Assembly: GCA_016861085.1 (NCBI GenBank)
Contig: BOKR01000001.1
Location: 991,298 to 1,055,297, forward strand
Origin: Patescibacteria group bacterium
GTDB taxonomy: Bacteria > Patescibacteriota > Microgenomatia > UBA1400 > PJMF01
Length of the DNA: 64,000 nt
Direction: 5' to 3'
The number at the start of each line of letters is the position of its first letter. Position 1 is the first letter of the stretch. A program made the position numbers and the translations under genes. Below are positions 3,864 to 48,661 of this stretch, piece after piece. The notes beneath the pieces were generated by a model that was not told where the DNA came from, did not search any database, and was given only the letters and a program-made list of their open reading frames with translations.

Positions 3864-3906
3864 TGAGTATACTCAAGTAAAAGAAACAATTGTAGAGGGA
3901 ATAAAG

Positions 3907-4350
3907 CTACCTCCCCCGCTTCATTTCCCTTGCAATATCCCGTTGAATGGTTCGTTCTTTCATTTTGGCGCGCTTGTCATGTAGCTTCAAACCACGACCT
4001 AAGCCAAACGTTAACTTAACTTTGTTTCCAATTAAATCAAAACTGAGCGGAACAAGCGCGCGACCTTTTTCGGTGATAGCAGTTGTGAGTGCCGTTATTT
4101 CTTTTTTGCGCAACAATAATTTCCGGGTTCTTTTAGGATCATATTCTGCGTTATTAGCAAATTTGTATGGTGATATTTGTGCATTAATTAGAACTAATTC
4201 ATCACCAAAAGATTTAATAAAACTACCAGTCAGACTACCGCTTTGATTTCGCAAACTTTTCACCTCTGGGCCACTCAAAACAACACCTGCTGTATAGGTT
4301 TTCTCGATTGCATACTCGTGTGTTGCTTTTTTATTTTTTAGTAGCTGCAT
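3907..4350 (-). CDS. smpB: SsrA-binding protein SmpB
   Basis: 147 aa with the typical SmpB sequence (…VLSGPEVKSLR…DPKRTRKLLLRKKEI…GLGRGLKLHDKRAKMKERTIQRDIAREMKRG). Confidence 0.9.
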   Translation of the reverse strand: MQLLKNKKATHEYAIEKTYTAGVVLSGPEVKSLRNQSGSLTGSFIKSFGDELVLINAQISPYKFANNAEYDPKRTRKLLLRKKEITALTTAITEKGRALVPLSFDLIGNKVKLTFGLGRGLKLHDKRAKMKERTIQRDIAREMKRGR

Positions 4351-22220: not shown

Positions 22221-22830
22221 TATAACAATACACAGATATTACCATTCAAGAAGTAAACGAATACTGGACTTTTTTCTTGCTCTTAGCTTACTTACACTAC
22301 TCTCACCACTCATTGTCTGCCTTTGTTGTAGTACAGGAATAGTTGGTGGAAAGCCAGTTGTCTACAAACAAATGAGACTTGGTAAAAACAAAAAGCCATT
22401 TATTTTATATAAAATTAGAACTATGAAAAAAGGAGCATCAGTATTGCAACAAAAACTCAAAGACCTAAATGAGGCTCCCTATCCTATGTTCAAAATAGCA
22501 AATGATCCTAGATTTACGAGAATAGGTAAGTACCTTTCTCGCTTGGGCTTAGATGAAATACCTCAAATAATCAATATCATTAAAGGAGAAATGAGTTTTA
22601 TTGGACCTCGTCCTCTTCCTATTTACGAAGCTAGTCAGCTTGATGATACCTGGGACTTTAGGTACAAAGTAAAACCAGGAATCCTTTCAACATGGGCACT
22701 TTCTCCTAAAAGGCATGATTCACTTGCTGAGTGGAAAAAACTTGAGATAAGTGGACTGCAATGTGCATCGATTGCAAATGACATACGACTGATCATTAGA
22801 TCAGTTAAAACAGTAATCTTTAGACATTAA
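22213..22830 (+). CDS. Polyprenyl-phosphate sugar phosphotransferase (bacterial sugar transferase, WbaP/CpsE/PglC-like initiating enzyme)
   Basis: 205 aa. One N-terminal TM helix plus the conserved KxRTM…PRxTxxGxxLRxxxLDELPQ…GxMSxIGPRP signature. Confidence 0.85.
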   Translation: MTDITIHRYYHSRSKRILDFFLALSLLTLLSPLIVCLCCSTGIVGGKPVVYKQMRLGKNKKPFILYKIRTMKKGASVLQQKLKDLNEAPYPMFKIANDPRFTRIGKYLSRLGLDEIPQIINIIKGEMSFIGPRPLPIYEASQLDDTWDFRYKVKPGILSTWALSPKRHDSLAEWKKLEISGLQCASIANDIRLIIRSVKTVIFRH

Positions 22831-28996: not shown

Positions 28997-30475
28997 ATGC
29001 AAACCAAAGTAGCTGTTTTAGTTTTGTTGTTTGTTGTTTCTATTAGCCTTTTTTTTAGAACCTACAATGTTGAGAATACTACGAGAGTATTCAGCGATTC
29101 TGGCAGGGATTTTCTTGTTGCTAAAAAAATAGCCGAAGGATCTGCCCCATATAATCCATATTTAGCTTCATCATCTGGTTTTGAAAGCACTCCTATCTAT
29201 TATTGGGTTATTGCTTTTTTTTGGTCGATTGGAAGATCAATCGAAAACACTATAACTATTTATTCCGTGACTTTAGCTATAGCTACACCACTTATATTTT
29301 ATTTAATTGGAAAGGAAATTCATTCAAAAGAGCTCGGATTGTTCCTTGCTTTTTATTCCTCAATTCAACCATATTTTGTTGGTTTATCTAGGTGGATCTG
29401 GCAACCAAATGTGTTGATATTACTAATTCCAACGTTGTATTTATTTTTTTTATACAACAAAAAAGTTTTACTAAGAAAGAACCAACACAAGGAAAAATTT
29501 ATTCATATTTTTTTACTATTTCTCATACTAAATTTGAATATTCATATTCACTTCTCTTCGATAGTCTGCGTTTCTTTTCTGATCTCAATATTGATATATG
29601 AATTGCTAAAAAATAAGAAAATACTACTCGCTATCTCAGTAGGTTTAGGTTTTATTTCTTCGGTGTTAATTAGAGCGATAGTTGTCAATATTGCAACCCC
29701 AACAATCTTTGGTGTTGGCCTAAGTTTAAATCAAATGCTCATAAACTATAAACAAATTATTGGATCTTATGACAAAACTATTTTCTTAAATGAATGGTCA
29801 GAAAAACCTTCATTTTTCCCAAACATGATTCTTTTATTAGTTTTTCTTTCTATTTATTCATTTAAGAAACATAAAAAGTTGCCAAACCAGCTTATTACCT
29901 TACTAATAGGGTCACTACTCTCATTCATAACAGTAGTTTACCCAAAAACCGTGTATACCTACTTCTACATACCCCAGCTAGTACTTTTTCATATTCTTTT
30001 TGGAAGCATTCTGTACTTTTTTATGAAAATTAAGATTCAAATTTGTAGCAAGTTTTGTTTTGCACTAATCACAATAATTATATGTGGTTACTATATTGCT
30101 CACACCTATCAAATAATACACACAACCAACGAAATCAAAATCTCACAAATACTTTCGTTGGAGATTTACAAAGATTATAATACCAACCATCTCAGTATAT
30201 TTAGCATTGATTTTGTACCAAACAATTATGGACAAACAGACCATCAAAGTACATTTGACGCTATTTTGTGGCTACAAATGGAGTCCTTAATGAAAACTCA
30301 ACTCGTAAAAATTGGCACAACGTCACCTACAATAATCGAACCAAACAACCCCAAAATCACGTATTATGTTTTAGGCAACTCAGACCTAGTAGTACCACAA
30401 AAAAATACTGTGAAGATATTCGAACGAAAAATAGAGGGCGATACTTACTCAATTTATAAAGAATTAGCACTGTAA
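28997..30475 (+). CDS. GT-C-like polytopic membrane protein, third tandem paralog (divergent)
   Basis: 492 aa with multiple TM helices. N-terminal loop FSDSGRDFLVA…, in the same position as the DE/HPPL loop of the two upstream paralogs. Confidence 0.45.
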   Translation: MQTKVAVLVLLFVVSISLFFRTYNVENTTRVFSDSGRDFLVAKKIAEGSAPYNPYLASSSGFESTPIYYWVIAFFWSIGRSIENTITIYSVTLAIATPLIFYLIGKEIHSKELGLFLAFYSSIQPYFVGLSRWIWQPNVLILLIPTLYLFFLYNKKVLLRKNQHKEKFIHIFLLFLILNLNIHIHFSSIVCVSFLISILIYELLKNKKILLAISVGLGFISSVLIRAIVVNIATPTIFGVGLSLNQMLINYKQIIGSYDKTIFLNEWSEKPSFFPNMILLLVFLSIYSFKKHKKLPNQLITLLIGSLLSFITVVYPKTVYTYFYIPQLVLFHILFGSILYFFMKIKIQICSKFCFALITIIICGYYIAHTYQIIHTTNEIKISQILSLEIYKDYNTNHLSIFSIDFVPNNYGQTDHQSTFDAILWLQMESLMKTQLVKIGTTSPTIIEPNNPKITYYVLGNSDLVVPQKNTVKIFERKIEGDTYSIYKELAL

Positions 30476-32332: not shown

Positions 32333-33556
32333 ATGCGAAAAAAAATTCTCTTTCTAAGTCAAGTATATCCATATCCAGCGGATGGTGGCGGTAAAATTAA
32401 AACATTAAACTCACTAAAAACACTTGCTAAAGATTTTGACGTCTATGCAATCTTTATTTCAGAAAAAAAACCGCTCAAAAAAGATATCGAATATCTTAAA
32501 AAAATTGGAGTAAAAAAAATCAAAGTATTTTACAATCTAAAAATTTTAGCATCTGTTAAAGATGATTATCCTCATCTAATTATGAATTTCCTGAAACTGA
32601 GGCCACACTATGTATTTCAGTATACTTTTGCACCGGCATTTTCATATATAAAAAATGCTGTCAGTAGCTACAAACCAGACATCATACACATCGACCATAT
32701 TAATATTGCTCAATATTTGCCAAAAGAAAAGAATGAAGTCTGGATTCTTGAGCACCACAATCTTGAATTTTATCTTCTATGGACAAGATTTTTATACTCC
32801 TCCAAATGGTCAAGAAAACTGTATCTGCTCATCGAGTCAGTACTAACATATTTATTTGAATCAAAAAAAATAAAACAATTTGATTTTGTTTTTACTATTT
32901 CTCAAGAAGAAGCTGAAAGATCAAAAAGATTTTTTGGGATAAGAAACGTTTCAGCTCAACCTCTTGTGTACCCCACCATTACTATTAAGAAGAAATTGTC
33001 ACTCAATCCTCACCTCCTTTTCATAGGTGGTCTAGGTTGGCCACCTAACGAAGATGCCATAGAGTGGTTTATCAATCAAATGTTTCCAATAATTCTAGAA
33101 AAAATTCCAAACGTTGAGCTTCATGTAGTTGGTAAAGATAACCCCATTCTTACTCATAGGTTACCAAAACACACTAATATCTTTTTACATGGGTATCAAA
33201 AAGATATCACACCTTTTTTGCAAAAAGCAGATATTTTTATCTTGCCCTTCCGCATGGGTGGCGGGGTTAGAATTAAGAGCCTGACTGCTCTTTCTGCGGG
33301 AGTACCAATCGTGTCTACAAAGTTGGGTGTAGAGGGACTAAAAGTCAAAAATAATACACACTATCTAGAAGCAAACACTGAAATAGATTTTGCCAACAGC
33401 GTTATCACACTGCTTAAGTCAAAAAAAATGCAAGATAAAATGTCAAAGAATCAAACCGAATATTTGACTGAAAACCACTCAAAAAAATTGAATAGAAAAT
33501 GGCTGGATGAATATCACTTTTGGTCTACATATCCCCATAAAAAAAACCGTTCATAA
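32333..33556 (+). CDS. GT4 family glycosyltransferase
   Basis: GT-B fold with a C-terminal …FILPFRMGGGVRIKSLTALSAGVPIVST…G.EG motif. Confidence 0.75.
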   Translation: MRKKILFLSQVYPYPADGGGKIKTLNSLKTLAKDFDVYAIFISEKKPLKKDIEYLKKIGVKKIKVFYNLKILASVKDDYPHLIMNFLKLRPHYVFQYTFAPAFSYIKNAVSSYKPDIIHIDHINIAQYLPKEKNEVWILEHHNLEFYLLWTRFLYSSKWSRKLYLLIESVLTYLFESKKIKQFDFVFTISQEEAERSKRFFGIRNVSAQPLVYPTITIKKKLSLNPHLLFIGGLGWPPNEDAIEWFINQMFPIILEKIPNVELHVVGKDNPILTHRLPKHTNIFLHGYQKDITPFLQKADIFILPFRMGGGVRIKSLTALSAGVPIVSTKLGVEGLKVKNNTHYLEANTEIDFANSVITLLKSKKMQDKMSKNQTEYLTENHSKKLNRKWLDEYHFWSTYPHKKNRS

Positions 33557-34419
33557 ATCTTCAAAAAGATAAAAGATAAAATGCTTCTTCTTTTACCAAA
33601 GGAGAAATATTGTCTATATTCCTGCGGCCATCCCTTGAGAGATTTGAAATATGTTTTCCAATTCACATAGGGCAAATATACAAACTCATTAGAAATTTCC
33701 CATTTTTCAGCTAGTAATCTTGCTAATCTACCACGGTAATACCCTTTTTTCAGGAAATAAGTCATACTTGTTGTTTCCTCGTGCCAAATTTGCAACTGCT
33801 TTATAAACAATCCTTTTAAACCCTTAGACTGCATTGCAAATCCCATATCTGTATCTGCGCTATCAAACCAATCAATATGAATTTTTGTATCAAAACTCAA
33901 TCTATTTCTTTTTAGATCTGAAACTTTGAATATAATATTTTTCGTATCTACATTAAAAGGAGTTGTTAATACTCCACCTTGAAGCTTTTGCATAAACCAG
34001 TACTTTTGGTGGACGTATTGAGCTGTGGCAGTTGCACTATAAGAGTTCAGTACTTTTGAATCTCCAATAAAGTACGAATTATTGGGAAAAATCTTTACAA
34101 TCCTTTCTGCAACAGTAATCCAACTCTTATGAAGTACGCAATCATCGTCAACAAAAGCCAAGTATTTTGTTTTTACATTTCTTAGAGCCACATTCCTAGC
34201 AAAAGGGACACCTTGTTTTTTTTCTGATATGTATCGAATCTGTAAAATATTTGAAAAAGAACAAGCAACGCTTTTTGCACTTAAGGCAATATCATTATCA
34301 ACAATTAATATCTCTAAAGGATATGTAGTCTGATCTACTAAAGAACAAAGTAAGCGGTGTAGTTGTTCCGGCCTTTTTTTTGTAACGATTGCTAAAGTAA
34401 CTTGCCTTTTTTCATGCAT
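33514..34419 (-). CDS. GT2 family glycosyltransferase
   Basis: N-terminal …AIVTKKRPEQL…ILIVDND… GT-A signature. Confidence 0.7.
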   Translation of the reverse strand: MHEKRQVTLAIVTKKRPEQLHRLLCSLVDQTTYPLEILIVDNDIALSAKSVACSFSNILQIRYISEKKQGVPFARNVALRNVKTKYLAFVDDDCVLHKSWITVAERIVKIFPNNSYFIGDSKVLNSYSATATAQYVHQKYWFMQKLQGGVLTTPFNVDTKNIIFKVSDLKRNRLSFDTKIHIDWFDSADTDMGFAMQSKGLKGLFIKQLQIWHEETTSMTYFLKKGYYRGRLARLLAEKWEISNEFVYLPYVNWKTYFKSLKGWPQEYRQYFSFGKRRSILSFIFLKIYERFFLWGYVDQK

Positions 34420-35876
34420 AGCAGCGTAAGTACCCCTAAATATAAAAATAATAAATCAAAACTTGGATCTTGATTAAATAGTGTGTGAACTTGCGAATTT
34501 AGGATAAACCCTACAACCCCCAACCATATACCAAAAAACACGTTTTTTTTAACATACTTAAAACTCAATTGTAATATACCAAGTAAAAACAAAATAAAAA
34601 ATACAGTACTAGGAATTCCTAGCTCTGAGAAAAAAAGAAAGAAAGTGTTATGCACGGGAAACATAAAACCTCTTAATTCAGGGGGCAATAAACTTTGTTC
34701 GTTCATCATTCTAGTACTTAAATTCAGTCCAACCCCAAATAAGGGAAATTCCTTTATCATAATTAGTGCCTGTTCAATGAGAGCTATTCTGACAACTCCA
34801 CTTCCATCTGATAAAAATTCCGTAGTGCTTACTATTCTGAGCCAAAATCGTTTACCAAATAGAACTAAAAAACTGCTTATTCCGGCGATAAAAAATAGTA
34901 GATATTTACTGATAAATTCTTTTAAAAAAATTCTTTCATTAAAATACAAGTTGAGGAAAAAAACTATGAAAAAAAGTAAGCTTGAAAACCATCCGCTCCT
35001 AACAAAACTCCCATACAACGCTAGCAGTCCTAGAAGTACACAGATAGATGAAACCACAGTTGTACCTCTCTGTTTTTCTTGCAATGAGAAAATTGAAAAA
35101 ACAATGGCAAATGGTAACAACATGCTAACAAAACTAGCAAAAAAAGTTGGGTGTCCAATTAAGCCAGAAGCTCTGTATAAACTTTCCGAACCGTCTGAAG
35201 TAAGGTATCCCTGTTGTTCATAACCAGCTCCGTCCTCGAGGTACCAACCTATTGGCCCACCATTTTGATGTTGTAAAAAACCAACGTACCCATTTAAAAA
35301 TAGGACCAAAATTATCGATAGGAAAAAATATTTTACAAATGTTCTGTTTTGTAAAATGATAATCGTTATAAAAAATAAAAACACCGCTTGTAAGATTCTT
35401 AAAAATCCAAAAAAGCTTAAAAAGTAGTCACTGGAAAACACTGTGCTTACAAAAGCTAGTACAATAAAGCCTAGTAATGCAAAAAGTACTAGCATAATAT
35501 TCTGATTAAATGATTTTCTAAAGTAGAAAAATAATTCTGGAGATGAAATTAAAAAAAGTAGCAAAATTATAATTGATCTCAGACTTACACCGTAATACAA
35601 GCTAAAACCGTGCATCCAAAATTCCCTTCCCTGAGCCACAGCAACCAAATCCCATCCACGAATGCCTTTGTCAAATGAAAAAACAAATAGCAACGCAACA
35701 AATAAGACTTCCTTTATTGAAAAATCAAAAAGTAGAAAATTAAATGTTACAAATGAAGACACGATAAAAAGCAAGGTCTTTATATCGTGAACAAATTGAA
35801 GAGCAACAATATGTACTAAAAAAACAAAAATAAAAAATAGTGAATTACCTAGTAACTGTTTCAACTTCAGCAACAT
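34392..35876 (-). CDS. Polytopic membrane protein, O-antigen ligase/polymerase-like
   Basis: 494 aa with ~12 TM helices and a large extracytoplasmic loop (…LEDGAGYEQQGYLTSDGSESLYRASGLIGHPTFFASF…), typical of the Wzy_C/O-antigen-ligase family. Confidence 0.5.
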   Translation of the reverse strand: MLLKLKQLLGNSLFFIFVFLVHIVALQFVHDIKTLLFIVSSFVTFNFLLFDFSIKEVLFVALLFVFSFDKGIRGWDLVAVAQGREFWMHGFSLYYGVSLRSIIILLLFLISSPELFFYFRKSFNQNIMLVLFALLGFIVLAFVSTVFSSDYFLSFFGFLRILQAVFLFFITIIILQNRTFVKYFFLSIILVLFLNGYVGFLQHQNGGPIGWYLEDGAGYEQQGYLTSDGSESLYRASGLIGHPTFFASFVSMLLPFAIVFSIFSLQEKQRGTTVVSSICVLLGLLALYGSFVRSGWFSSLLFFIVFFLNLYFNERIFLKEFISKYLLFFIAGISSFLVLFGKRFWLRIVSTTEFLSDGSGVVRIALIEQALIMIKEFPLFGVGLNLSTRMMNEQSLLPPELRGFMFPVHNTFFLFFSELGIPSTVFFILFLLGILQLSFKYVKKNVFFGIWLGVVGFILNSQVHTLFNQDPSFDLLFLYLGVLTLLCMKKGKLL

Positions 35877-36804: not shown

Positions 36805-37605
36805 ATGAAAAATAGCCACTATGATTGGAAAAACTTACTTATCGAGCTAACAAAGAAAGAGATATCTGTTAGATACAAAAAAACATTCTTTGGTTTTTTA
36901 TGGATGTTCTTAAACCCACTTTCTCAAATGCTAATTTTAGGGATTGTTTTTCAAAATTTTGCGAATCTCTCAATAAAAACTGAGAATTACTTTTTGTTTT
37001 TATTTATTGGACTTATCATTTGGAATTTTTTTTCAAATACTTTATATACTACAATTCCCATTTATGTTAATGAACGGGCTCTACTACAAAAAAGCAAATT
37101 TCCGAGAGAAATCATCCTTATTTCAGTACTATTTTCCAATCTATTTCATTACTTAGTTTCCCTTCTTGTTCTTCTTTGTTTTATTAGTATCTACTTCCTC
37201 TTCAGCAATGGTATGGGCGTTGTATTGAATTTGATTATTAGAACACCACTCATTCTCCTGACTACAATCTGGCTTGGACTACTTACAACCGGTATTGGTT
37301 TATTTCTCTCGTCACTGAATGTTAAATATAGAGATATTAATTTTTTTACTAGCGCAGCACTGCCACTCCTGTTTTATGCCTCCCCAATCATCTGGGAACT
37401 CCATTTTGTTCCGAAAGCTATTTTACCGATTCTGTACCTAAATCCACTCGCCTCTATCATTGAAATAAACAGGTATGTTTTTCTAAATGAAGGATTAGCT
37501 TTTTCAAAAGGAATTCTTTTAGGATTAATTGTTACCATCATTGTACTAGCGCTCGGAATTTATATTTTCGAAAAAGAAAGTCCTTACTTTGACGATTGGC
37601 TATAG
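36805..37605 (+). CDS. ABC-2 type polysaccharide/teichoic-acid export permease (Wzm/TagG-like)
   Basis: 266 aa, 6 TM helices, N-terminal …ISVRYKKTFFGFLWMFLNPL… ABC-2 signature. Confidence 0.75.
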   Translation: MKNSHYDWKNLLIELTKKEISVRYKKTFFGFLWMFLNPLSQMLILGIVFQNFANLSIKTENYFLFLFIGLIIWNFFSNTLYTTIPIYVNERALLQKSKFPREIILISVLFSNLFHYLVSLLVLLCFISIYFLFSNGMGVVLNLIIRTPLILLTTIWLGLLTTGIGLFLSSLNVKYRDINFFTSAALPLLFYASPIIWELHFVPKAILPILYLNPLASIIEINRYVFLNEGLAFSKGILLGLIVTIIVLALGIYIFEKESPYFDDWL

Positions 37606-38359
37606 AATGAAACCGAAACAAAAAAAACTACAAGAAATAGCGGTCAAACTAACGAAAGTGAGTAAAGTTTATACTGTAAAAACAGAAAAACCAACACTTG
37701 TTGAAACAGTACTAAACAAAAAGGGTATCACAAAATATACTGCTCTTAATTCTTTTGATTTAACTGTTCTTAAAGGTGAAAAACTTGGAATCATTGGTTC
37801 AAATGGTGCAGGAAAAACGACACTATTAAAAATTATTGTCGGAATTACACAGCCTCAAAGCGGAACTGTCACCGTAAATGGTAAAATTGTCTCATTGATT
37901 AATCTAATGGCAGGTTTTCACCCAGAGATGTCTGGTTTTGACAACATCAAGCTTAACGGACTGCTCATTGGTATGAGTGGAGCAGAAATCGAGGAAAAGA
38001 AAAATAAAATAGTAAAATTTGCAGATATTGGTGAGTTTATCTATGCGCCATTACATACCTACTCAACTGGAATGAAGTTGCGTCTTGGATTTTCTATAGC
38101 GGTTCACTCGGACCCAGATATTCTTATTCTCGATGAAGGGGTAAGTGCCGGTGATGAAAAATTCAGAGCGAAAGCGAACAATAAAATTCAAAAATTATTC
38201 AAACAAAATAAAACCATTATTGTCGTTTCACACTGGCTCAATTTTCTTAAAGAAAATTGTAATAGAATAATTTGGATGGAAAAAGGCAAAATAAAAAAAG
38301 ACGGCTCAACTAAGCTACTAGATGAATATCTGGCCTTTTATGCAGGAAAGAAAAAGTAA
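37589..38359 (+). CDS. ABC transporter ATP-binding protein (Wzt/TagH-like)
   Basis: Walker A GSNGAGKTTLLK, ABC signature YSTGMKLRL, Walker B ILILDEG. Start overlaps the permease stop. Confidence 0.8.
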   Translation: MTIGYRMKPKQKKLQEIAVKLTKVSKVYTVKTEKPTLVETVLNKKGITKYTALNSFDLTVLKGEKLGIIGSNGAGKTTLLKIIVGITQPQSGTVTVNGKIVSLINLMAGFHPEMSGFDNIKLNGLLIGMSGAEIEEKKNKIVKFADIGEFIYAPLHTYSTGMKLRLGFSIAVHSDPDILILDEGVSAGDEKFRAKANNKIQKLFKQNKTIIVVSHWLNFLKENCNRIIWMEKGKIKKDGSTKLLDEYLAFYAGKKK

Positions 38360-39844
38360 CACAACCCTTGGTTTGAAAATCATTCTGTGAAATGGAAGCT
38401 TCAAAGCTAATCGCATAACATGCAGTTCCACCAGAAATTTCCGAGCAAAGTAGCTGTTCTCGTCCCACCAATTCCCTTCACCTTGATAAGTTGCTATCCT
38501 ATTTAAGTCAAAATGCTTCGATAATAATTTGACTCTTCTGTTCACACCGAATGAAGAAAGATATTTCTCATTAAGTTGTAAATTAAAAATCCTGTTCCCA
38601 ACGTACATCAGTAGTTGAACTTCATCCCAAAACCCATACTGACTAGAAATCCTCTGTAACTTCTGCCAATTAATTTTGGTGTCTTCCGAAAGAATTTTCG
38701 ACAGTTCAAATATTTTTCGCAATCCATGAAAAAAGTCGTTTGCCCATAATCTTACAACTGAACTTAAAATGTAATATTCGATCTCTATTATCCCATCTTT
38801 TGAGTGAGATAAAATGTCTTTTGTTAGTCTCATTGTTTCTTTTCGTGTGAAAATCAAGTTTCTTGGAATTGAAGAATAGTAATGCAAATCTATGACAAGA
38901 TTGTGTTTATCATGAATCAACTGCACTTCCTGAGGAGGACAATCTTTCGTTCTGTATCCCAGAATATATAATGCAATCAAATATCTTTTTAAGTATCTTT
39001 TGCCGACAAGAATATCAATGTCATATGTTGTATTTTGTTTTAGTTTTATGTCACCTTGATATTTTTTCAATAAAACAAATCTAACTCCCAACTTTTTTGC
39101 TATTAAATGCAAATCATTTTTCAGCTTGTCCTTTTGCCAGTCAAGAAAAATATTCTTTTTAAAAAGATTTTCAATTCGTAACAAAAATTGATCTGAAAAG
39201 TAACTTCTACAATTTATACAATTTAAAATATGATTAAAATAAGTAATTGATTTGTTATTTTCAGCTATTTTAAATAACCGGTCTTCAAGTACAACATTCT
39301 GTTGAAAATCCCACTTACATTTCTTCCCCTTTTCCTTAGATATACTAAGTAAAAAATCGTATGATAAATCAATTCCTTTTCTATTTCTTTTTTGTGCAAG
39401 AATTTTTAAAATAACAACTTCGTAAAAAAAATAGTTGTGTACCAATTTGAAAATATATTTTCTTGGAATAGTTAGACTCATTAAAAATGAATATATTTGA
39501 AAAAAAGGTATGATCAGTTTTGAAATGAAAACTTCAAGATCTAAAACATATGCTCCATTCTTGATAACAGTAACAATTCCAATATAACTGCTGCCATTCA
39601 CAAGATCTCCGTCTTCTGTTAGATTAAAATCTCCTTTTACCTTCAGTAATCTGCCACTATCACCGTTAACTACTTTAGTAACCCTGTGTGATAAAAGGTT
39701 GCCTGTATAGTTTCTATATAAAACTATATCTCCAGATTGTACTTGAGAAAAAGGATAATCCAATTGAACTGTTAACCTATCCCCTGAAGAAATAAGGGGA
39801 AACATACTTTTTCCTGAAGACGTAATCTGTATATATTGTTTCAT
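38318..39844 (-). CDS. Fusion: S24/S26 (signal-peptidase-I-like) peptidase domain + PF14907-type 'uncharacterised nucleotidyltransferase' domain
   Basis: N-terminus GKSMFPLISSGDRLTV…SGDIVLY…TKVV… has the S26 Ser/Lys signature. C-terminus has …GVRFVLLKKYQG…YDIDILVGKRYL… (R-x-DIDLLV-like nucleotidyltransferase motif). The internal ATG (MKQYIQITSSGKSMFP) is preferred because the track start at 39919 would overlap the divergent GT2 gene start. Confidence 0.5.
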   Translation of the reverse strand: MKQYIQITSSGKSMFPLISSGDRLTVQLDYPFSQVQSGDIVLYRNYTGNLLSHRVTKVVNGDSGRLLKVKGDFNLTEDGDLVNGSSYIGIVTVIKNGAYVLDLEVFISKLIIPFFQIYSFLMSLTIPRKYIFKLVHNYFFYEVVILKILAQKRNRKGIDLSYDFLLSISKEKGKKCKWDFQQNVVLEDRLFKIAENNKSITYFNHILNCINCRSYFSDQFLLRIENLFKKNIFLDWQKDKLKNDLHLIAKKLGVRFVLLKKYQGDIKLKQNTTYDIDILVGKRYLKRYLIALYILGYRTKDCPPQEVQLIHDKHNLVIDLHYYSSIPRNLIFTRKETMRLTKDILSHSKDGIIEIEYYILSSVVRLWANDFFHGLRKIFELSKILSEDTKINWQKLQRISSQYGFWDEVQLLMYVGNRIFNLQLNEKYLSSFGVNRRVKLLSKHFDLNRIATYQGEGNWWDENSYFARKFLVELHVMRLALKLPFHRMIFKPRVVLLFLSCIKGQIFI

Positions 39845-39924
39845 GTGACTAACTATATCAAACCTATTATAAGCAAATATTTTTAGTTCTGGAAATGCAA
39901 AACAAAATACTGTATACAAACCTT

Positions 39925-40929
39925 ATGAGTAAGGTGTCTGTAATCATACCAACAAAAAATAGACAAGAATATCTAAAAAAGAACTTGAATGCCCTCGTGA
40001 ACCAAACAGTTGCACCTGACGAAGTTATTGTAGCTGATAATGGTTCAACAGATAATACAAAAAAGATTATCAGTTCATTTAAAGATAAGCTTCCGATTAA
40101 GTACCTCTTGGTTAAAAAATCAGGGGTCACCCATGCTCGAAATAACGCTGTTAAAAAAGCAACACATGAGATCGTTGCTTTTCTTGATGATGACTGCGAA
40201 GCAAAAAATAACTGGATTGAAAAAATCAAGAAAAACCAACACTATCTTGATACCCATGTTGTCCAGGGAAAATCGATTAACCCTAATAAAAAAAATATAA
40301 TCGCCGAAGTTATGTACTTCTGCTCTGAAACAGGTGTTAGAGTTTGCATTAGTGAATCAAAAATTATTAATAATCAAATAGATAATAAACCAATTTTTTT
40401 CGATTTTCTTGACACAAAGAACTTGGTGATAGGCAAAAAAATCATTAAAAAAGTTGGTACTCTATTTGACAATAACCTTGAAAGTTACAATTATGGTGAA
40501 GATACAGAACTTGGAATAAGACTACATTCTATGGGTATTTCTTCAATATATTGTGAGGACATCAAAGTCGATCATCATTACATTGATAATCTTATGCCAT
40601 TTATCAAAAAAAGCTTCCTAGCGGGTAAAACACAAGTGGCTGTAACAAAGATAATTAAAATGAAGCACAAGGAGAGGTATGAAAATGAAAAAAAATATGC
40701 TGAGATTTTTGGCAATAAGGCAATGAAAAATATTGTTGGGAAGAGACTAAAAAATGTGAGAATAATTTCAAATGAGTATTTTAGAATATTATCAAAAAAA
40801 TATTCACCTTTGCGTATAATCACATTCAAATCATTATTTTATGGGCATATTCTTTTCAAAAATCTGGGAATTTACTACCAGAAGTTACTTTACTTATTTA
40901 TAAAACTACCCTATACTCACTCTCGTTAA
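39925..40929 (+). CDS. GT2 family glycosyltransferase with C-terminal extension (paralog A)
   Basis: MSKVSVIIPTKNRQEYL…VIVADNGSTDNT…AFLDDDC… GT-A core plus a ~100 aa helical tail. Paralogous to the 41291-42205 gene. Confidence 0.65.
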   Translation: MSKVSVIIPTKNRQEYLKKNLNALVNQTVAPDEVIVADNGSTDNTKKIISSFKDKLPIKYLLVKKSGVTHARNNAVKKATHEIVAFLDDDCEAKNNWIEKIKKNQHYLDTHVVQGKSINPNKKNIIAEVMYFCSETGVRVCISESKIINNQIDNKPIFFDFLDTKNLVIGKKIIKKVGTLFDNNLESYNYGEDTELGIRLHSMGISSIYCEDIKVDHHYIDNLMPFIKKSFLAGKTQVAVTKIIKMKHKERYENEKKYAEIFGNKAMKNIVGKRLKNVRIISNEYFRILSKKYSPLRIITFKSLFYGHILFKNLGIYYQKLLYLFIKLPYTHSR

Positions 40930-40932
40930 ATT

Positions 40933-41196
40933 ATGAAAAAATATAAGATAAATTCAAAATTAGTATATAAACAAGTATCAGACCAAGTCATCATCTTAGA
41001 TGAAGAAAGAGCTGAAGTCCGAGAACTCAATGATGTTGCAAGCCTTATATTCCTCAATATGATTTCTTGGACCACTCTAGAAAAAATTTCTGAAAAAATA
41101 TCAAAAGAATACGACGTTTCTCAAAAAGAGGTATTGCGTGATGTAAATGAGTTTGTTACTATGTATATAGATAAAGGTTATATATTAACCAAGTGA
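40933..41196 (+). CDS. PqqD-family peptide chaperone (RiPP recognition element, RRE)
   Basis: 87 aa. …VIILDEERAEVRELNDVASLIFLNMISWTTLEKISEKISKEYDVSQKEVLRDVNEFVTMYIDKGYIL matches the PqqD consensus end to end. Confidence 0.75.
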   Translation: MKKYKINSKLVYKQVSDQVIILDEERAEVRELNDVASLIFLNMISWTTLEKISEKISKEYDVSQKEVLRDVNEFVTMYIDKGYILTK

Positions 41197-41209
41197 TTCA
41201 GAAAGGCAT

Positions 41210-41284
41210 ATGAAAAAAACATACAAAAAACCAGCAGAAAAAGTTGAAAAACTATTGGTCTACACTGGTAATCAAACCCTCTAG
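41210..41284 (+). CDS. Small ORF (24 aa, MKKTYKKPAEKVEKLLVYTGNQTL), candidate modified-peptide precursor
   Basis: Fills the 94-nt gap between the PqqD and GT2 genes. GAAAGG Shine-Dalgarno sits 3 nt before the ATG. Contains a YxxP leader-like motif; below the ORF-track length cut-off. Confidence 0.3.
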   Translation: MKKTYKKPAEKVEKLLVYTGNQTL

Positions 41285-41290
41285 TTAGAG

Positions 41291-42205
41291 ATGATTTCTG
41301 TTATAGTTGTGACGAGGAATAGGCAATCTCATTTGTTTGGTTGTCTAGTTTCCCTTTCAAAACAGACTAGACAGCCAAAGGAAATTCTAGTTATCGACAA
41401 TGCTTCGACTGATAACACTAGGGTAGTTGTTGAAGAATTTTCAAGGAAGTACCCTCACATTAAATACATTTATTGTTCAAAACTTGGAATTCCCTACTCT
41501 AGGAATATGTCTGTTGAAAAGGCTAAATATGACATACTTGCTTGTTTAGATGACGATTGCAACCCTGATTTGGATTGGTATGAGAATATTGAAAAACAGG
41601 CTGAATTAGCGAATAATTATGTACTTCAAGGAGGAGCTAAAAATCCCAATCCTACTAATGTACTTTCAACCACTCTTTTTTATCTAAATCAGAGATTTCT
41701 CAACCTAGAATTACTAATTAGCAATAATACTTATCGAAAGTATAAAGTTATTCATTTTTTTGATACAAAAAATTTCGTAATACACAAAAAACACATCAAA
41801 AAGGTTGGTCATTTTTTAAATGAAAAACACATTCTCGCTGCAGACTTATTCTTCCAAAAGGATCTCGAAAATAACAACATTAAAATTCTCTACTTGCCTG
41901 GCATAGATGTATACCACAGTTACATGACAAATTTATTTGGATATTTGAACAAAATCATTTGGGCAAAAAAATGCAAGCAAATTTTTGGTTCTGTTCAACT
42001 CATACATACAAAAAAATTAGAATCAACCAAAAACTTGTTTGGTATGGATAGGGTTGCTAAAGTTCAAACAACATTTTACAAGAAACTTAAAAAAATAAAC
42101 CAAGATTTTTTTGATACTTGTGCAGCAAAAATGAATTTTCCCAAAAAGATTATGCTTAAAACAACAGTTTTTTTGACGCAGTTGTATCTTGGTGACACTA
42201 TCTAA
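41291..42205 (+). CDS. GT2 family glycosyltransferase with C-terminal extension (paralog B)
   Basis: MISVIVVTRNRQSHL…LVIDNASTDNT…ACLDDDC…, same layout as paralog A. Confidence 0.65.
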   Translation: MISVIVVTRNRQSHLFGCLVSLSKQTRQPKEILVIDNASTDNTRVVVEEFSRKYPHIKYIYCSKLGIPYSRNMSVEKAKYDILACLDDDCNPDLDWYENIEKQAELANNYVLQGGAKNPNPTNVLSTTLFYLNQRFLNLELLISNNTYRKYKVIHFFDTKNFVIHKKHIKKVGHFLNEKHILAADLFFQKDLENNNIKILYLPGIDVYHSYMTNLFGYLNKIIWAKKCKQIFGSVQLIHTKKLESTKNLFGMDRVAKVQTTFYKKLKKINQDFFDTCAAKMNFPKKIMLKTTVFLTQLYLGDTI

Positions 42206-42222
42206 AGTATAATACAACTCCA

Positions 42223-42972
42223 ATGCATAAAAGTTTTTGTATCGATTTAGCATCAAAAAAGGTAGAGATTTCTGCAAATACAGATAATGTTTTCGAACAC
42301 TTAATGCAAAGTTATAGTAACTTTATCGTTAGAGATAGCAGAAAAACAAACATTAATTTACAGATCAAAGGCATTAAAACAAGAAAAAATTATAAACCGA
42401 TTAGTGATATTTCATCCAGAAGTGGAAAAATTATTATTCCCAACAACGCCAATCTAAGTTTTTCTGAAATACACTTTAATATCAAAATTGTTCTAACTCA
42501 ACTTCTAATTCAAGATGATTTTATGCTTCTGCACGCTTCGGCATTCATAAAGAATAATAATATGTATATTATGAGTGCTCCGTCTGGAACTGGCAAATCA
42601 ACAACTTGTAGATTTGCAAAAGAAAAAGGATTAAATGTTGTTTGCGATGACTCTGTTTTGCTAAGGGTCGAAAACAGAAAACTAATCGGGTATACAACTC
42701 CTTATATCGAAACTCATAAAAAGGTTTCTTCTCCACAATCATATCAGGTTGCTGGGATATACTTTTTGCATCAATCTAAAACAGACAAACTACAAAAACA
42801 AAACACCGTTGAATCAGTACGAAGCATTTTGTTTAATAGTTATATTTTTCAAAATGACTACAAAGAAAAGTATATAAGCAAGTATTTTTCTTTAGCCCAT
42901 GTGATAGCTAGTAGAACGAAAACGTACGATCTGTTTTTTACCAAATCTTCAAAATTTTTGGGAATAATTTAG
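42223..42972 (+). CDS. HPr-kinase/phosphorylase C-terminal-domain-like P-loop kinase (RiPP-associated Ser/Thr kinase type)
   Basis: …LLHASAFIKNNNMYIMSAPSGTGKSTTC…VVCDDSVLL… matches the HprK-like/lasso-peptide-kinase P-loop pattern LHAS.V…GxSGxGKST…DD. Confidence 0.6.
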   Translation: MHKSFCIDLASKKVEISANTDNVFEHLMQSYSNFIVRDSRKTNINLQIKGIKTRKNYKPISDISSRSGKIIIPNNANLSFSEIHFNIKIVLTQLLIQDDFMLLHASAFIKNNNMYIMSAPSGTGKSTTCRFAKEKGLNVVCDDSVLLRVENRKLIGYTTPYIETHKKVSSPQSYQVAGIYFLHQSKTDKLQKQNTVESVRSILFNSYIFQNDYKEKYISKYFSLAHVIASRTKTYDLFFTKSSKFLGII

Positions 42973-43904
42973 ATTACTTTGTTATAATCTTGAAATTTAT
43001 TGTCCATGTTGATACCGATATAATATACGAGGTAGTGTTTATTATGTTTATAGAGACAAAAATTCGGAAATGAACTATAAAGCTTTTGCATATTTTTTCT
43101 AACATTGTCAATTTCAGCAGCGAAGTTAAAAAAGATGATTCCATCTTTTTTAAGTATTCTATGAAGCCCATTTAAAAATGCTTTTGAAAATAATTGTTTA
43201 GGAAGTCGCCCATCAATAAATAGATCAATAAATATGAAATCGTATTTACTTTTCGATTCTTTTACAAAGTCAAATGCATCACTATTAATTTGGAAAATTT
43301 TTGCTGAATCTGTATTTTTAATTAATGGTAAAAAATAATTGGCTCCAATTTCACTAATTTTTGTATTGATCTCCACAGAGTCAACTTTCCTCACATTTCT
43401 CAAAATCGCTGTTACACAAGGAACAGATTCTGCACCACCACCTAGTACTAGAACATCATTATTTTTTGTGTTTTTTGACTGTAAGATGTCTCTAACAACC
43501 TTAAAATGAACGCATCTATCGTAAGGAAAAAGTGAAACTTTTGAGTGTGTCCAGTATACTCCAGGTGTTTTTTCATAAAAAGCTATTCTGGCTGATTCTT
43601 GAACCAAATCAAATCTTAGATGATCAACGACTGAGTGTTTCTTTTCGTCTATGTAAAAATCAGTAATGTGTATAAACAACCCCTGCTTTTTAAGCAAAAA
43701 GTAAAAGTAAATCAAGCTCAACAATAATACAACTACAACTACGCATGAAATAAGGAAATCTACCTTTAGCGAAATAAGTAGCAATACAAATAGCAGTACA
43801 AAATATGCTATTAATTTTTTGCTACCGTAAGGAGTTCCCTTGATGTACATGTTCCTATCATAATTTCTTATAACTTTTCTAAATAAAAAAATAAGTGTTG
43901 ACAT
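42969..43904 (-). CDS. Membrane-anchored class I SAM-dependent methyltransferase / spermidine-synthase-like protein
   Basis: N-terminal TM helices, then VLVLGGGAESVPCVTAIL…VDSVEIN…IFIDLF (Rossmann, spermine/spermidine-synthase-like). Confidence 0.5.
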   Translation of the reverse strand: MSTLIFLFRKVIRNYDRNMYIKGTPYGSKKLIAYFVLLFVLLLISLKVDFLISCVVVVVLLLSLIYFYFLLKKQGLFIHITDFYIDEKKHSVVDHLRFDLVQESARIAFYEKTPGVYWTHSKVSLFPYDRCVHFKVVRDILQSKNTKNNDVLVLGGGAESVPCVTAILRNVRKVDSVEINTKISEIGANYFLPLIKNTDSAKIFQINSDAFDFVKESKSKYDFIFIDLFIDGRLPKQLFSKAFLNGLHRILKKDGIIFFNFAAEIDNVRKNMQKLYSSFPNFCLYKHNKHYLVYYIGINMDNKFQDYNKVI

Positions 43905-43975: not shown

Positions 43976-44863
43976 ATGAAAAGAGCTTGGAAATATTATT
44001 CTGGTGTGTTTGCACATGAAAACGAACTTGATGACATTCTTTCTGGTTGGTATGGTCTGAGGAAATTTGGTTATGACGTAGTTAACTATTTAGAACCAAA
44101 AATTATAGTTGAACTTGGTACCCATAAAGGAACTTCTTTTTTATCTTTCTGTAATTCAGTTAGAAACAATACATTGAGTACAAAATTATATGCCATAGAT
44201 ACTTGGCAAGGTGACTCACAAACCGGCCTTTACGTTTCTGAAGTTTTAGAGAAACTAAAAAAGATAATAAAAAAACACTACTCTACCCAAAACATAAAAT
44301 TGGTAAAGAAAAGTTTTAATACTGCTGTCACACAGTTCAAGAACAAAAAAATAGATCTATTGCATATTGATGGACTTCATACTTATAACGCTGTTAAAAA
44401 TGATTACAACTTGTGGAACAAACTTACGAGTGAAAACGGTCTGATCATTTTTCACGACATTCACTGCAAAAACCCTGGATTTGGAGTTCACATATTCTGG
44501 AGTGAAATAAAAAAAGAAAATTATACATTAGAACTAAAGCATTCAAATGGGTTGGGAATTTTGTTTAAAAACAGAGAAGTCTACGAAAAATTGAGACCTT
44601 TGGAAAGTTCCTGGCAAGCATACTATAGTACCGTTGCCCAGCTGGATTACTACAAAAATTTTCCCAAAAACAAAAAATCTTCGTTAGCAAAAGAATATGA
44701 AGAAAAGCTAAAAACTTTAGAAAAAGTAACAATTAGAAGAAATAATGAGCTGATAAAAGAAAATGATGCTCTTGTTAAGCAGCTAGCAACAATCAACAGT
44801 TCGAATATACAAAAGATTGCACAAAAATACTACTCTACTCGAAAAAAAATTATTGGTAAATAG
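43976..44863 (+). CDS. Class I SAM-dependent methyltransferase (Methyltransf_24/CmcI-like) with C-terminal coiled coil
   Basis: …IVELGTHKGTSF…AIDTW…HIDGLHTY…IFHD… motif series. Confidence 0.55.
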   Translation: MKRAWKYYSGVFAHENELDDILSGWYGLRKFGYDVVNYLEPKIIVELGTHKGTSFLSFCNSVRNNTLSTKLYAIDTWQGDSQTGLYVSEVLEKLKKIIKKHYSTQNIKLVKKSFNTAVTQFKNKKIDLLHIDGLHTYNAVKNDYNLWNKLTSENGLIIFHDIHCKNPGFGVHIFWSEIKKENYTLELKHSNGLGILFKNREVYEKLRPLESSWQAYYSTVAQLDYYKNFPKNKKSSLAKEYEEKLKTLEKVTIRRNNELIKENDALVKQLATINSSNIQKIAQKYYSTRKKIIGK

Positions 44864-44884
44864 CCACAAAAAAAGCGCTTAATT

Positions 44885-45009
44885 CTGGCCTCGACCTATC
44901 TTCTCACTAGGGTTGCCCCTGCAATATTGTCAGCGCTGAGGCGTTTCAAGACTCTGTTCGGGAAGGGAAGAGTTGGGTCCACCTCGCTCCAGAGACCAGA
45001 ATTAAACGC
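44885..45009 (-). rRNA. rrf: 5S ribosomal RNA
   Basis: Minus-strand transcript GCGUUUAAUUCUGG…CCCGAACAGAGUCUUGAAACGCCUCAGCGCUGACAAUAUUGCAGGGGCAACC…CCAGAAUUAAGCGC. Helix I terminal pairing and loop-C/helix-IV consensus are present. Ends are approximate. Confidence 0.75.
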
Positions 45010-45189: not shown

Positions 45190-48115
<2,926 letters not shown>

Positions 48116-48587
48116 TAAATTTTAATTTAAAATTTTGCATGTTTGTATAATATTTTTCAATATGATACGGTTTGTAGCTTACTTATTATGTGCTTGAATT
48201 TGCATTCAAGCTCAAGTAATTATTTAATTCTTTAGTTAATCTCAAAATTGAAATTATAAAGATGTACGGCCAACTTAAATGATCAAATCATCTATTTGAC
48301 CTATACATGACAGTTTTCTTCACTTGTTAAAGTTCATCTTATAATTTTAAGTCTCAAAGCTTTCGGATTTATGCGTATAGAGCTTTTAAAAAACGTAGAG
48401 TTCAATATAATCTATACACCACCACTTATTTGACTTTAGCTTAGTTGCTAATTGTTAGTTCCTAGTTAATCCCGGGTGAGAGAAACCAAAGAACTAATAA
48501 CTAACAACCAATGTTATTTTAGTTTTCGCGCCAAAAAAAAAGAGTGATCAAATTATGAAAAGTAGTCTTATCCAGAGAAAAACTCTG

Positions 48588-48661
48588 TGGACCCTAAGGG
48601 GATCGAACCCTTCACCTCCTCATTGCAAATGAGGCGCTCTAGCCAGATGAGCTAAGGGCCC
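48588..48661 (-). tRNA. tRNA-Ala (anticodon UGC), CCA not encoded
   Basis: Cloverleaf read by hand: acceptor GGGCCCU/AGGGUCC with the G3:U70 alanine identity pair, D-arm AGCUCAUCUGGCUAGAGC, anticodon loop UUUGCAA, T-arm GGUUCGAUCCC. Confidence 0.85.

Follow-up and report, generated by a model that had tools for sequence, protein, structure and literature searches.

A probable miniature LppA-like precursor peptide in a Patescibacteria gene cassette resembling those of linear polyphosphorylated peptides

A short open reading frame (ORF) of 24 codons in a Patescibacteria metagenome-assembled genome (MAG), 'BroJett025', raises the question of whether such a small frame can be a gene and, if so, what its product does. 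The stretch that we analyzed, hereafter the window, spans 64,000 nucleotides (64 kb) of contig BOKR01000001.1 (GenBank assembly GCA_016861085.1, positions 991,298 to 1,055,297), and the ORF, encoding the peptide MKKTYKKPAEKVEKLLVYTGNQTL, lies on its forward strand at 41210–41284 (ATG at 41210, TAG at 41282–41284). It sits between the gene of a discrete PqqD-family recognition element (RRE) for peptides made on the ribosome and modified after translation (RiPPs), with its stop at 41196, 13 nt ahead of the ORF, and that of a family 2 glycosyltransferase (GT2) starting at 41291. An earlier note, made from the sequence alone, had described the ORF as filling 75 of the 94 nt of this gap and had proposed it as a precursor or substrate peptide bound by the RRE through a YxxP motif. 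The position, the length and the identity of both flanking genes are exactly as described there (the upstream product scores 43.3 bits against the PqqD family of Pfam, whose cut-off is 23.4). The Shine-Dalgarno-like GAAAGG is also present at 41201–41206 (+), though its spacing of 3 nt to the ATG is short; most orthologs carry stronger AGGAG or GGAGG sequences 4–8 nt ahead of the start. Standard annotation does overlook the ORF, as had been anticipated: the NCBI locus tags jump from 10230 (PqqD) to 10240 (GT2), and the peptide was not found in a collection of ~15 billion predicted proteins. Neither Pfam nor NCBIfam has a family for these peptides; all that the search of both gave was a hit without significance (E 0.21) between MKKKYSAP and a lasso precursor model from cyanobacteria.

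In such AT-rich DNA (31% GC) a 24-codon frame is nothing unusual: base composition gives it a chance of ~14%, and 201 ORFs reaching 20 aa or more lie in the surrounding 15 kb. The case therefore rests on comparative evidence. That evidence leads us to give a probability of about 0.75 to the reading that the ORF encodes a miniature LppA-like precursor of a RiPP pathway of the linear polyphosphorylated peptide (LPP) type, in ultra-small Patescibacteria. LPPs are a sister family to the phosphorylated lasso peptides (Popov et al., Nat Commun 2026, PMC13381572) and have been stated to be restricted to Bacillota; the signal peptidase I (SpI) dataset of that study contains no Patescibacteria, and the few SpI-RRE pairs from outside the Bacillota (cluster 3 of its sequence similarity network) had no determined precursor (PMC13381572). 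Judged by sequence, machinery of this type, hitherto known from Bacillota only, is also present in Patescibacteria.

The first line of evidence is conservation. Related cassettes were retrieved by protein homology to the GT2 or to the kinase encoded nearby, a procedure blind to the peptide, and came from unrelated metagenome contigs and one Candidatus Shapirobacteria genome; two more were obtained via a scan for a peptide pattern. A taxonomic label is available for the window and for locus L011, the other loci being low-GC metagenome contigs. A homolog of the peptide was found in all nine distinct protein-retrieved cassettes that cover the region, so that the search for syntenic small ORFs recommended in the earlier note gave one in every related cassette where it could be seen. 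In total there are 11 distinct homologous peptides of 23–32 aa, each beside a PqqD-type RRE in a conserved cassette: that of the window, MKKVYKKPAEKIEKLLVYTVEITL (L007), MKKKSYTKPAEKVEKLLVYTGLQSL (L009), MSKKKKYVKPAEKVESLVVYEILTL (L067), MKKKYSAPAEKVEQLVLYTSNPS (L071/L072), MKKNSRSKKTYKKPKDKVNRLILTTSFSL (L070), MSKREVSLKRRPYKKPDEKVEKLRIQTGYISD (L008), MKKQAKAKANQKRIYQKPAEKVKRIEILRGY (L011), MANKKAPARQAKKKIYQKPAGKIEKIEIYSW (L074/L075) and, from the degenerate-DNA pattern scan, ...YKKPAEKVEKIKIHTWWC (L030) and ...YKKPEEKVEKIKIQTSEC (L043). The window peptide starts with a Lys-rich N-terminus, followed by Y5-x-x-P8 and conserved E10-K11-V12..L15..V17; the conserved part stops at about T19/G20 and gives way to a variable tail, NQTL, in which Thr23 lies 18 residues after the Tyr of YxxP (position Y+18 in the numbering used below). 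The Tyr and Pro of YxxP are invariant in 11/11 peptides.

This conservation goes well beyond what chance would give. The pattern Y-x-K-P-[AD]-E-K-[VI]-[EK]-[KR] is found exactly once per cassette in the five that were checked, and six-frame translation of the 64-kb window and of ten distant kinase loci gives no further occurrence. A degenerate-DNA scan of metagenomes with the slightly wider Y-x-K-P-[ADE]-E-K-[VIM]-[EK]-[KR] gave 41 matches, two of which (L030 and L043) are small ORFs between a GT2 and a PqqD gene, the remaining 39 being without cassette context; viral contigs yielded just two chance matches, within a 702-aa ORF. Other routes to homologs were less productive. A word-indexed search with the PqqD protein returned itself alone and those with the GT2 and the kinase few matches, the contigs of the GT2 homologs P0003 and P0005 were too short or had an unrelated GT2 context, and a kinase-alignment scan of genome contigs gave, among the matches listed, at least 11 distant loci of which one (L011) was useful.

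Codon-level comparison, the other check that had been suggested, shows synonymous sites saturated and amino acids conserved, and the pattern expected of a mere spacer is not seen. Between the window and L007 the peptide genes differ by nine synonymous and five non-synonymous codon changes, and the first, second and third codon positions are identical in 18, 21 and 12 of the 24 codons. By Nei-Gojobori counting, the proportion of synonymous differences (pS) is 0.66–0.89, i.e., saturated, and that of non-synonymous ones (pN) is 0.12–0.22 for the peptide vs. 0.25–0.36 for PqqD, kinase and GT2, making the peptide the best-conserved product of the cassette. Its length is steady (23–25 codons in the five co-directional short members, 24–25 in the closest relatives of the window) while the spacers around it range from a 4-nt overlap to 34 nt. 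In five loci (L008, L011, L030, L043, and L074/L075) the peptide gene is inverted relative to PqqD and GT2; even then it adjoins the GT2 gene, and in L011, L030 and L043 it still lies between the two. The ORF is thus a real gene under purifying selection, strictly linked to the RRE and the cassette, and its position, kept despite inversion, is not that of a conserved spacer or of a coupled upstream ORF.

The second line of evidence comes from the RRE itself (87 aa, 40933–41196, +), the apparent counterpart of LppB and of lasso B1 proteins. Among sequences in the PDB its best matches are lasso B1 proteins, namely TfuB1 (1.7e-4) and TbiB1, together with LppB (9x8z, 0.018). Against the cognate RRE of the LPP system it shows 24% identity over the full length without gaps (pairwise E 1e-7, BLASTP), and it also aligns without gaps to crystallized LppB (9x8z_B). 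The offset of that chain reproduces every residue named in the publication, and the numbering of the window RRE and of LppB therefore coincides. In the LppB crystal structure, the residues lining the leader-binding pockets form a pocket for the Tyr, provide an Asp that hydrogen-bonds its hydroxyl and an Asn that fixes the kink at the Pro, and sandwich the Pro (PMC13381572). The window RRE keeps L32, N33, V35, I56, Y60, V67, D70 and F74 of these pockets. Across 12 RREs of the family, L32, N33 and D70 are invariant and F74 nearly so, and V/T35, I/L39, I/L/M56 and Y/F60 are conserved in these 12 and in LppB. This points to binding of the leader YxxP in the LPP manner, and it is this comparative evidence (a conserved gene, the invariant Tyr and Pro, the kept RRE residues, and the LPP enzyme set described below) that supports the original proposal of an RRE-bound precursor or substrate.

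A further hint is found in the pocket lined by RRE residues 30 and 78, which accommodates leader residue Y+5, a Val in LppA. The window has R30 and Y78, and Arg or His at position 30 together with Tyr78 goes with Glu or Asp at Y+5 in 10 of the 11 family loci (the exception, L075, has Gly), while LppB combines Thr30 and Met78 with Val and locus L073 combines Leu30 and Met78 with Phe. Such covariation is what LPP-style binding predicts, as far as it can be read from few independent lineages, and the R/H30 and Y78 pocket with its acidic Y+5 would be a natural example of the RRE-leader co-evolution proposed in the LPP paper. L073 (103–4579; ENA ERZ4756920, NODE_19473) is a different cassette, with a radical SAM enzyme, a PAPS-reductase-like protein, a QueC-like one (a faint match), an ScmC kinase and PqqD, in which a convergent ORF of 52 aa (3810–3968, -), MIKNRDNQKKKRYMKPKFTVKFLFTNL...EYLDEY, has a Lys-rich N-terminus and YxKP; it may represent an undescribed RiPP type.

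The third line is the set of enzymes. The core of the published LPP system comprises an archaeal-type SpI/SipW-like peptidase (LppS), a discrete RRE (LppB), an HprK-like kinase (LppK), a nucleotidyltransferase (NTP transferase, LppN) and an MsbA-like exporter; its supplementary table of co-occurring domains lists PqqD, NTP_transf_5 and TIGR02228, to which the text adds the HprK-like kinase (PMC13381572). Peptidase, NTP_transf_5, kinase, RRE, one GT2 and an ABC-2 transporter pair recur in our family wherever contigs are long enough. In the window, the peptidase is the N-terminal part of a fusion protein encoded on the reverse strand, a soluble archaeal-type SipW-like S26 signal-peptidase domain (39515–39844, -, limits approximate). 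The ORF as listed extends to a TTG at 39919, overlapping the start of the divergent GT2 gene, whereas gene callers start the protein (508 aa) at the ATG at 39844; the Ser motif of the peptidase then follows the N-terminus at a distance of 13 residues, and a membrane anchor is lacking. Its best NCBIfam match is TIGR02228 (E 2.9e-12, 46.7 bits, the cut-off being 51.85), and it aligns to the LPP SpI WP_077623675.1 with 31% identity (pairwise E 6e-13, BLASTP); a PDB sequence search with this domain gave nothing informative. The domain has the boxes GxSMxP, GDI, [SA]HR and KGDxN and also a conserved Asp; those with the Ser, His and Asp are conserved in four loci, and they agree with the triad S29/H68/D93 of LppS. 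By this resemblance the SipW-like domain is the probable leader peptidase, i.e., the LppS counterpart.

The rest of the fusion protein (38318–39514, -) is an NTP_transf_5 (PF14907) nucleotidyltransferase-like part, the likely counterpart of LppN and PsmN, which in the window scores below the family cut-off (E 1.7e-6, 28.3 bits, cut-off 31.2) and in the L008 ortholog passes it with 97 bits; all loci keep its D-I-D (DxD) motif unchanged. L008, L011, L067 and L070 encode the peptidase separately, and in L074 (5170–6756, -) and L075 (4199–5785, -) a 528-aa NTP_transf_5 protein carries the peptidase motif (SRSMAPLLLPG) at its C-terminal end, the reverse of the order in the window and L007. Peptidase and NTP_transf_5 have therefore been fused independently in each order. 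The kinase (42223–42972, +) is an HprK-related/ScmC-family P-loop protein, the putative counterpart of LppK, PadeK and PsmK, with an invariant P-loop, G122-x-G-K-S-T127, and an invariant metal site, D142-D143. It matches HprK_rel_A (E 9.7e-11) and ScmC (E 5e-9), both below cut-offs, has a precomputed PF27840 ScmC annotation, and weakly matches the HPr(Ser) kinase 3tqf across H-A-S..P-loop..CDD. Its subfamily is small, with four clusters at E ≤ 1e-30 and 496 at 1e-10 among 1.84 billion representatives.

Put together, these resemblances suggest a pathway in which the PqqD RRE would bind the leader, with Tyr5 in the hydrophobic pocket hydrogen-bonded to Asp70, Pro8 held between Val35 and Phe74, Glu10 opposite Arg30 and Tyr78, and residues 11–17 contributing a β-strand to the RRE sheet. 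The RRE would then offer the peptide to the HprK-like kinase, which would phosphorylate a hydroxyl residue of the short C-terminal tail, Thr23 being the likeliest, and to the soluble SipW-like domain, which would cut it where the conserved part ends, following Gly20 or Thr19. The fused NTP_transf_5 and the adjacent GT2(s) may add sugars to the phosphate, and the linked ABC-2 transporter would export the product.

The sites of phosphorylation and cleavage that we infer follow from the register of the leader. LPP precursors measure 35–200 aa and carry the leader motif YxxPxVLxHQxIxFET/xxS (the slash marking the cut), with cleavage after T-1 and polyphosphorylation of Ser3 of the core; counted from YxxP, in the Bacillota precursors this means a cut after Y+15 and a phospho-Ser at Y+18 (PMC13381572). 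A gapless alignment anchored on YxxP sets ...F-E-T/A-Q-S of LPPs against ...Y-T-G/N-Q-T-L in the window and ...Y-T-G/L-Q-S-L in L009. Ser or Thr occupies Y+18 in five peptides (window, L007, L009, L071 and L008) and Y+17 in two (L067 and L070). At its end, the conserved part has a hydrophobic residue at Y+12, any residue, Thr at Y+14 (7/11) and mostly Gly, Ser or Val at Y+15, which is compatible with a signal-peptidase cut after Y+14 or Y+15. By analogy with LPPs, Thr23 would thus be the kinase target, with the leader removed after Gly20 or Thr19. The earlier suggestion that a C-terminal Thr could be phosphorylated gains indirect support in so far as Thr23 falls on the position of the LPP phospho-Ser3, and is weakened by LppK itself, which did not accept Thr in place of Ser3 (S3T; PMC13381572).

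That rejection of Thr is one of several points that weigh against an LPP-type precursor. Four peptides stop at Y+15 to Y+17, which under an LPP-like cut leaves a core of 0–2 residues; with such near-coreless members the register, or even the logic of leader plus core, may therefore differ. Past YxxP the leader reads E-K-V-E-K-L-L-V-Y-T instead of the V-L-x-H-Q-x-I-x-F-E-T of LPPs, the precursors (23–32 aa) are shorter than the published range, and the covariation in the RRE pocket is based on few independent lineages. The TIGR02228, HprK_rel_A and NTP_transf_5 scores of the window proteins lie under the curated cut-offs, a deficit compensated by orthologs or pairwise comparisons. Finally, the GT2s look like ordinary polysaccharide enzymes, and since the locus is embedded in a large stretch of glycan genes, some of the adjoining genes may have nothing to do with the peptide.

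It is mainly because of the near-coreless members that the peptide could instead be a leader without a core, one that binds the RRE, and may stabilize or activate the complex of RRE and enzymes, and is not itself matured, the enzymes acting on a glycan intermediate or another protein. The insolubility of LppB when its peptide is absent (PMC13381572) would fit such an adaptor, as would the constant location of the cassette in glycan loci, together with GT2s, Wzy_C and an ABC-2 exporter, and the resemblance of the GT2s to polysaccharide enzymes. We regard it as unlikely. The precursor peptides of the homologous LPP and paeninodin pathways are themselves phosphorylated and cleaved, our cassettes conserve a dedicated signal-peptidase domain that is soluble and has its catalytic triad intact, seven of the 11 peptides have Ser or Thr at Y+17 or Y+18, matching the LPP phospho-site, and a conserved leader followed by a variable tail is the usual RiPP pattern.

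More speculatively, the peptide might serve as a primer, or handle, of ribosomal origin for a glycopolymer of the cell surface and not be a conventional natural-product precursor, an idea to which we give little credence at present. Guided by the RRE, the kinase may then (poly)phosphorylate the C-terminal Ser/Thr, NTP_transf_5 add the first sugar to that phosphate and the GT2(s) extend it, after which the Wzm/Wzt-type ABC-2 transporter may export the peptide-phospho-glycan and the signal-peptidase domain free the product from the leader. Transporters of the Wzm/Wzt type normally handle lipid-linked glycans. This reading would explain the shrinking or absent core, the constant glycan-locus setting and the differing type of exporter. 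A glycan-locus setting has also been noted, unexplained, for the LPPs of Bacillota and for paeninodins.

Much less probable than an RRE-bound precursor is a regulatory upstream ORF, translated in order to control the downstream GT2 gene by coupling or attenuation, with its amino acids incidental. It is true that its stop codon lies 6 nt before the GT2 start and that in the window both genes share a frame, separated by TAG-TTA-GAG (41282–41293). Relatives do not keep this frame relation (there are two in-frame stops in L007 and another frame in L009), in L071 the kinase and not the GT2 gene comes next, and both the five loci with the gene on the strand opposite GT2 and PqqD and the conservation of amino acids at saturated synonymous sites run counter to such a role. 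On the same frame data a read-through N-terminal extension of the downstream GT2 was rejected, such a fusion not being conserved. Lastly, the idea that the frame is open by chance in an AT-rich spacer, or belongs to a conserved non-coding element that is open by accident, would draw on the abundance of short ORFs in this DNA and can practically be dismissed in view of 11 homologs with invariant Y..P..K, variable DNA and spacers, both orientations, and codon position 3 as the most variable.

Some other candidate identities were rejected as well. The N-Q-T triplet that the earlier note had likened to a glycosylation sequon is not conserved, N-x-T occurring in the window alone and the equivalent tails of orthologs being GLQSL, VEITL, SNPS (with Pro at x) and GYISD, or having FSL, LTL or no such positions at all. 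The companion idea of a glycosyltransferase target finds no support either: by sequence search both window GT2s resemble generic polysaccharide GT2s, their link to the peptide is one of gene adjacency, and a glycocin-type substrate was discarded because of this generic resemblance. A lasso peptide does not fit, the tail being too short and no cyclase or B2 family appearing in the scans run. No Asn_synthase-type lasso cyclase was found among the cassette genes, ten further large ORFs (Pfam, E 1e-5; four of them without a match) or the precomputed annotations of L001, L007, L008, L070 and L074, and no lasso B2 family (a cysteine protease of transglutaminase type) in the same scans and annotations, which outside the cassette covered window ORFs of at least 330 aa.

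The remaining genes of the cassette comprise a first GT2 with a DDD motif (GT2 'a', 39895–40929, +), which opens the forward-strand operon; the second one, GT2 'b' (41291–42205, +), immediately downstream of the peptide gene; a spermidine-synthase-like (Spermine_synth) transferase with an N-terminal hydrophobic stretch (42969–43904, -); and a Methyltransf_24 class I methyltransferase (43976–44863, +), an accessory gene that is found in some family loci. Both window GT2s weakly match the model of MftF, far under its cut-off. Nearly every family locus has a GT2 gene adjoining that of the peptide; in L071 the kinase gene is downstream of the peptide gene, and the contig of L067 stops short of the downstream gene. 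In L009 (3–2250) each of two GT2 genes is broken into two ORFs, probably by assembly frameshifts and not as pseudogenes, because the contig name indicates 2x coverage. The spermidine-synthase-like protein is conserved in the Patescibacteria cassettes, with orthologs in L007, L008, L009, L070 and L071, and the cassette of L074/L075 has a PLP-dependent decarboxylase (Pyridoxal_deC) between GT2 and kinase. Upstream (36805–38359, +) are a Wzm/Wzt-like ABC-2 permease (36805–37605) and ATPase (37589–38359), a pair (ABC2_membrane and ABC_tran) that is linked to the cassette in the window, L007, L008, L011, L070 and L074 and is the candidate exporter.

The cassette stands at the end of a long cell-surface glycan region (window 9863–44863), which mirrors the capsule-locus context of Bacillota LPPs. 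Besides the ABC-2 pair and an epimerase-like ORF, it contains GT4 genes (9863–11788 and 32333–33556), MurJ (14830–16530), a PMT_2 GT-C enzyme (28997–30475), a GT2 (33514–34419) and two Wzy_C/O-antigen-ligase-like proteins (22827–25085 and 34392–35876). Directly downstream of the cassette are a 5S rRNA (44883–45000) and a full-length 23S rRNA (45199–48120), followed by a tRNA (48588–48661), all on the reverse strand; the rRNA operon appears to be split, since there is no 16S rRNA gene in the 64 kb.

If the peptide is indeed an LPP-type precursor, this machinery reaches into Patescibacteria, organisms with minimal genomes and presumed episymbiotic lifestyles. Its minimal natural substrate, a leader plus 0–5 residues, would be a convenient handle for the products of kinase, NTP_transf_5 and GT2s, and the strict linkage to GT2s and a Wzm/Wzt-type exporter offers a clue to function that can be tested. 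The LPP paper assigned neither a final product nor a biological role to its peptides (PMC13381572), and the primer reading, if true, would give LPP-type systems such a role. As gene callers miss the gene, surveys for RiPPs in candidate phyla will pass this family by if they do not inspect small ORFs beside RREs.

It is also instructive to compare the cassette with known systems. In the pathways of PQQ (PqqA/PqqD) and mycofactocin (MftA/MftB) the precursors are very small as well, ~23–30 aa, with a PqqD-family RRE and few C-terminal residues serving as the substrate, and the mycofactocin cluster includes a GT2, MftF. Both depend on a radical SAM enzyme (PqqE/MftC) and, to our knowledge, involve no kinase, signal peptidase or NTP_transf_5. 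The likeness is thus that of a tiny RRE-recognized precursor; our cassette differs in having no radical SAM enzyme, and the MftF matches of its GT2s reflect generic GT2 similarity.

The cassettes of Haft's HprK-related kinase A and SynChlorMet (ScmC-ScmD) likewise pair such a kinase with a PqqD-family protein. The partners in SynChlorMet are radical SAM/SPASM enzymes, which our cassette lacks, and scores of 41.3, 35.9 and 22.8 bits for TIGR04352, TIGR04249 and TIGR04248 remain far under the cut-offs of 200, 125 and 100 (the RRE matches ScmD weakly), so that membership in either group was rejected. Distant ScmC-like kinases also occur next to a radical SAM/SPASM enzyme in an Acidobacteriota MAG (L012, 7863–9927) and, in a Clostridia MAG (L020, 7539–10932), ahead of genes for PqqD, a protein of 168 aa and an exporter of the ABC_membrane type. 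Kinases of this family thus recur in RiPP-like settings; the motif used detected no YxKP peptide in L012 or L020.

A further comparison is with the phosphorylated and phosphoglycosylated lasso peptides. In paeninodin, an HPr-kinase homolog phosphorylates the C-terminal Ser of the linear lasso precursor (Zhu et al. 2016, as reviewed in PMC8498205), and in pseudomycoidin the NTP_transf_5-type PsmN is required to add a hexose onto the phosphate, the DD site of PsmK and the D-x-D motif of PsmN being essential (Zyubko et al. 2019, PMC6993621). They share with our cassette a B1-type PqqD RRE recognizing a [Y/W]xxP leader and an NTP transferase that is sometimes fused to the leader protease, and it is lasso B1 proteins that the window RRE matches best in both PDB and NCBIfam. 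The differences are a tail (0–5 residues) far too short for a lasso, which needs a core of ~15 or more residues with Asp/Glu at 7–9, and a leader peptidase that is here a serine signal-peptidase homolog.

The closest counterpart remains the LPP system, from which the cassette departs in several respects. Its hosts are Patescibacteria and not Bacillota, the tail past the conserved part has 0–5 residues as opposed to the 45 aa of the LppA core, the residue at Y+5 is acidic, with matching changes in the RRE (R/H30, Y78), where LPPs have Val, and the candidate acceptor in the window is a Thr of the sort that LppK rejected. The exporter is an ABC-2 (Wzm/Wzt-like) pair, with no ABC_membrane/MsbA-type gene in the cassette, one or two GT2s and a SpeE-like protein are additional conserved members, and the peptidase is often fused to the NTP transferase. 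Three features of the published family are therefore not shared here: the full leader consensus together with the range of precursor lengths, an exporter of the MsbA type, and the taxonomic range. What the two systems have in common is all four protein families (PqqD RRE, HprK-like kinase, TIGR02228/SipW-like soluble peptidase, and NTP_transf_5) and a YxxP close to a Lys-rich N-terminus, with MKVYKKP... in the LPP of Sediminibacillus and MKKVYKKP... in L007. Equally shared are a variable C-terminus (here GNQTL, VEITL, GLQSL, SNPS, GYISD, WWC, SEC, GY and others), a Ser or Thr at Y+18 (in 5/11 of our peptides), gene sets in which no lasso cyclase was found, and a location among genes for cell-surface polysaccharides, the LPP clusters being located in capsular-polysaccharide loci (PMC13381572).

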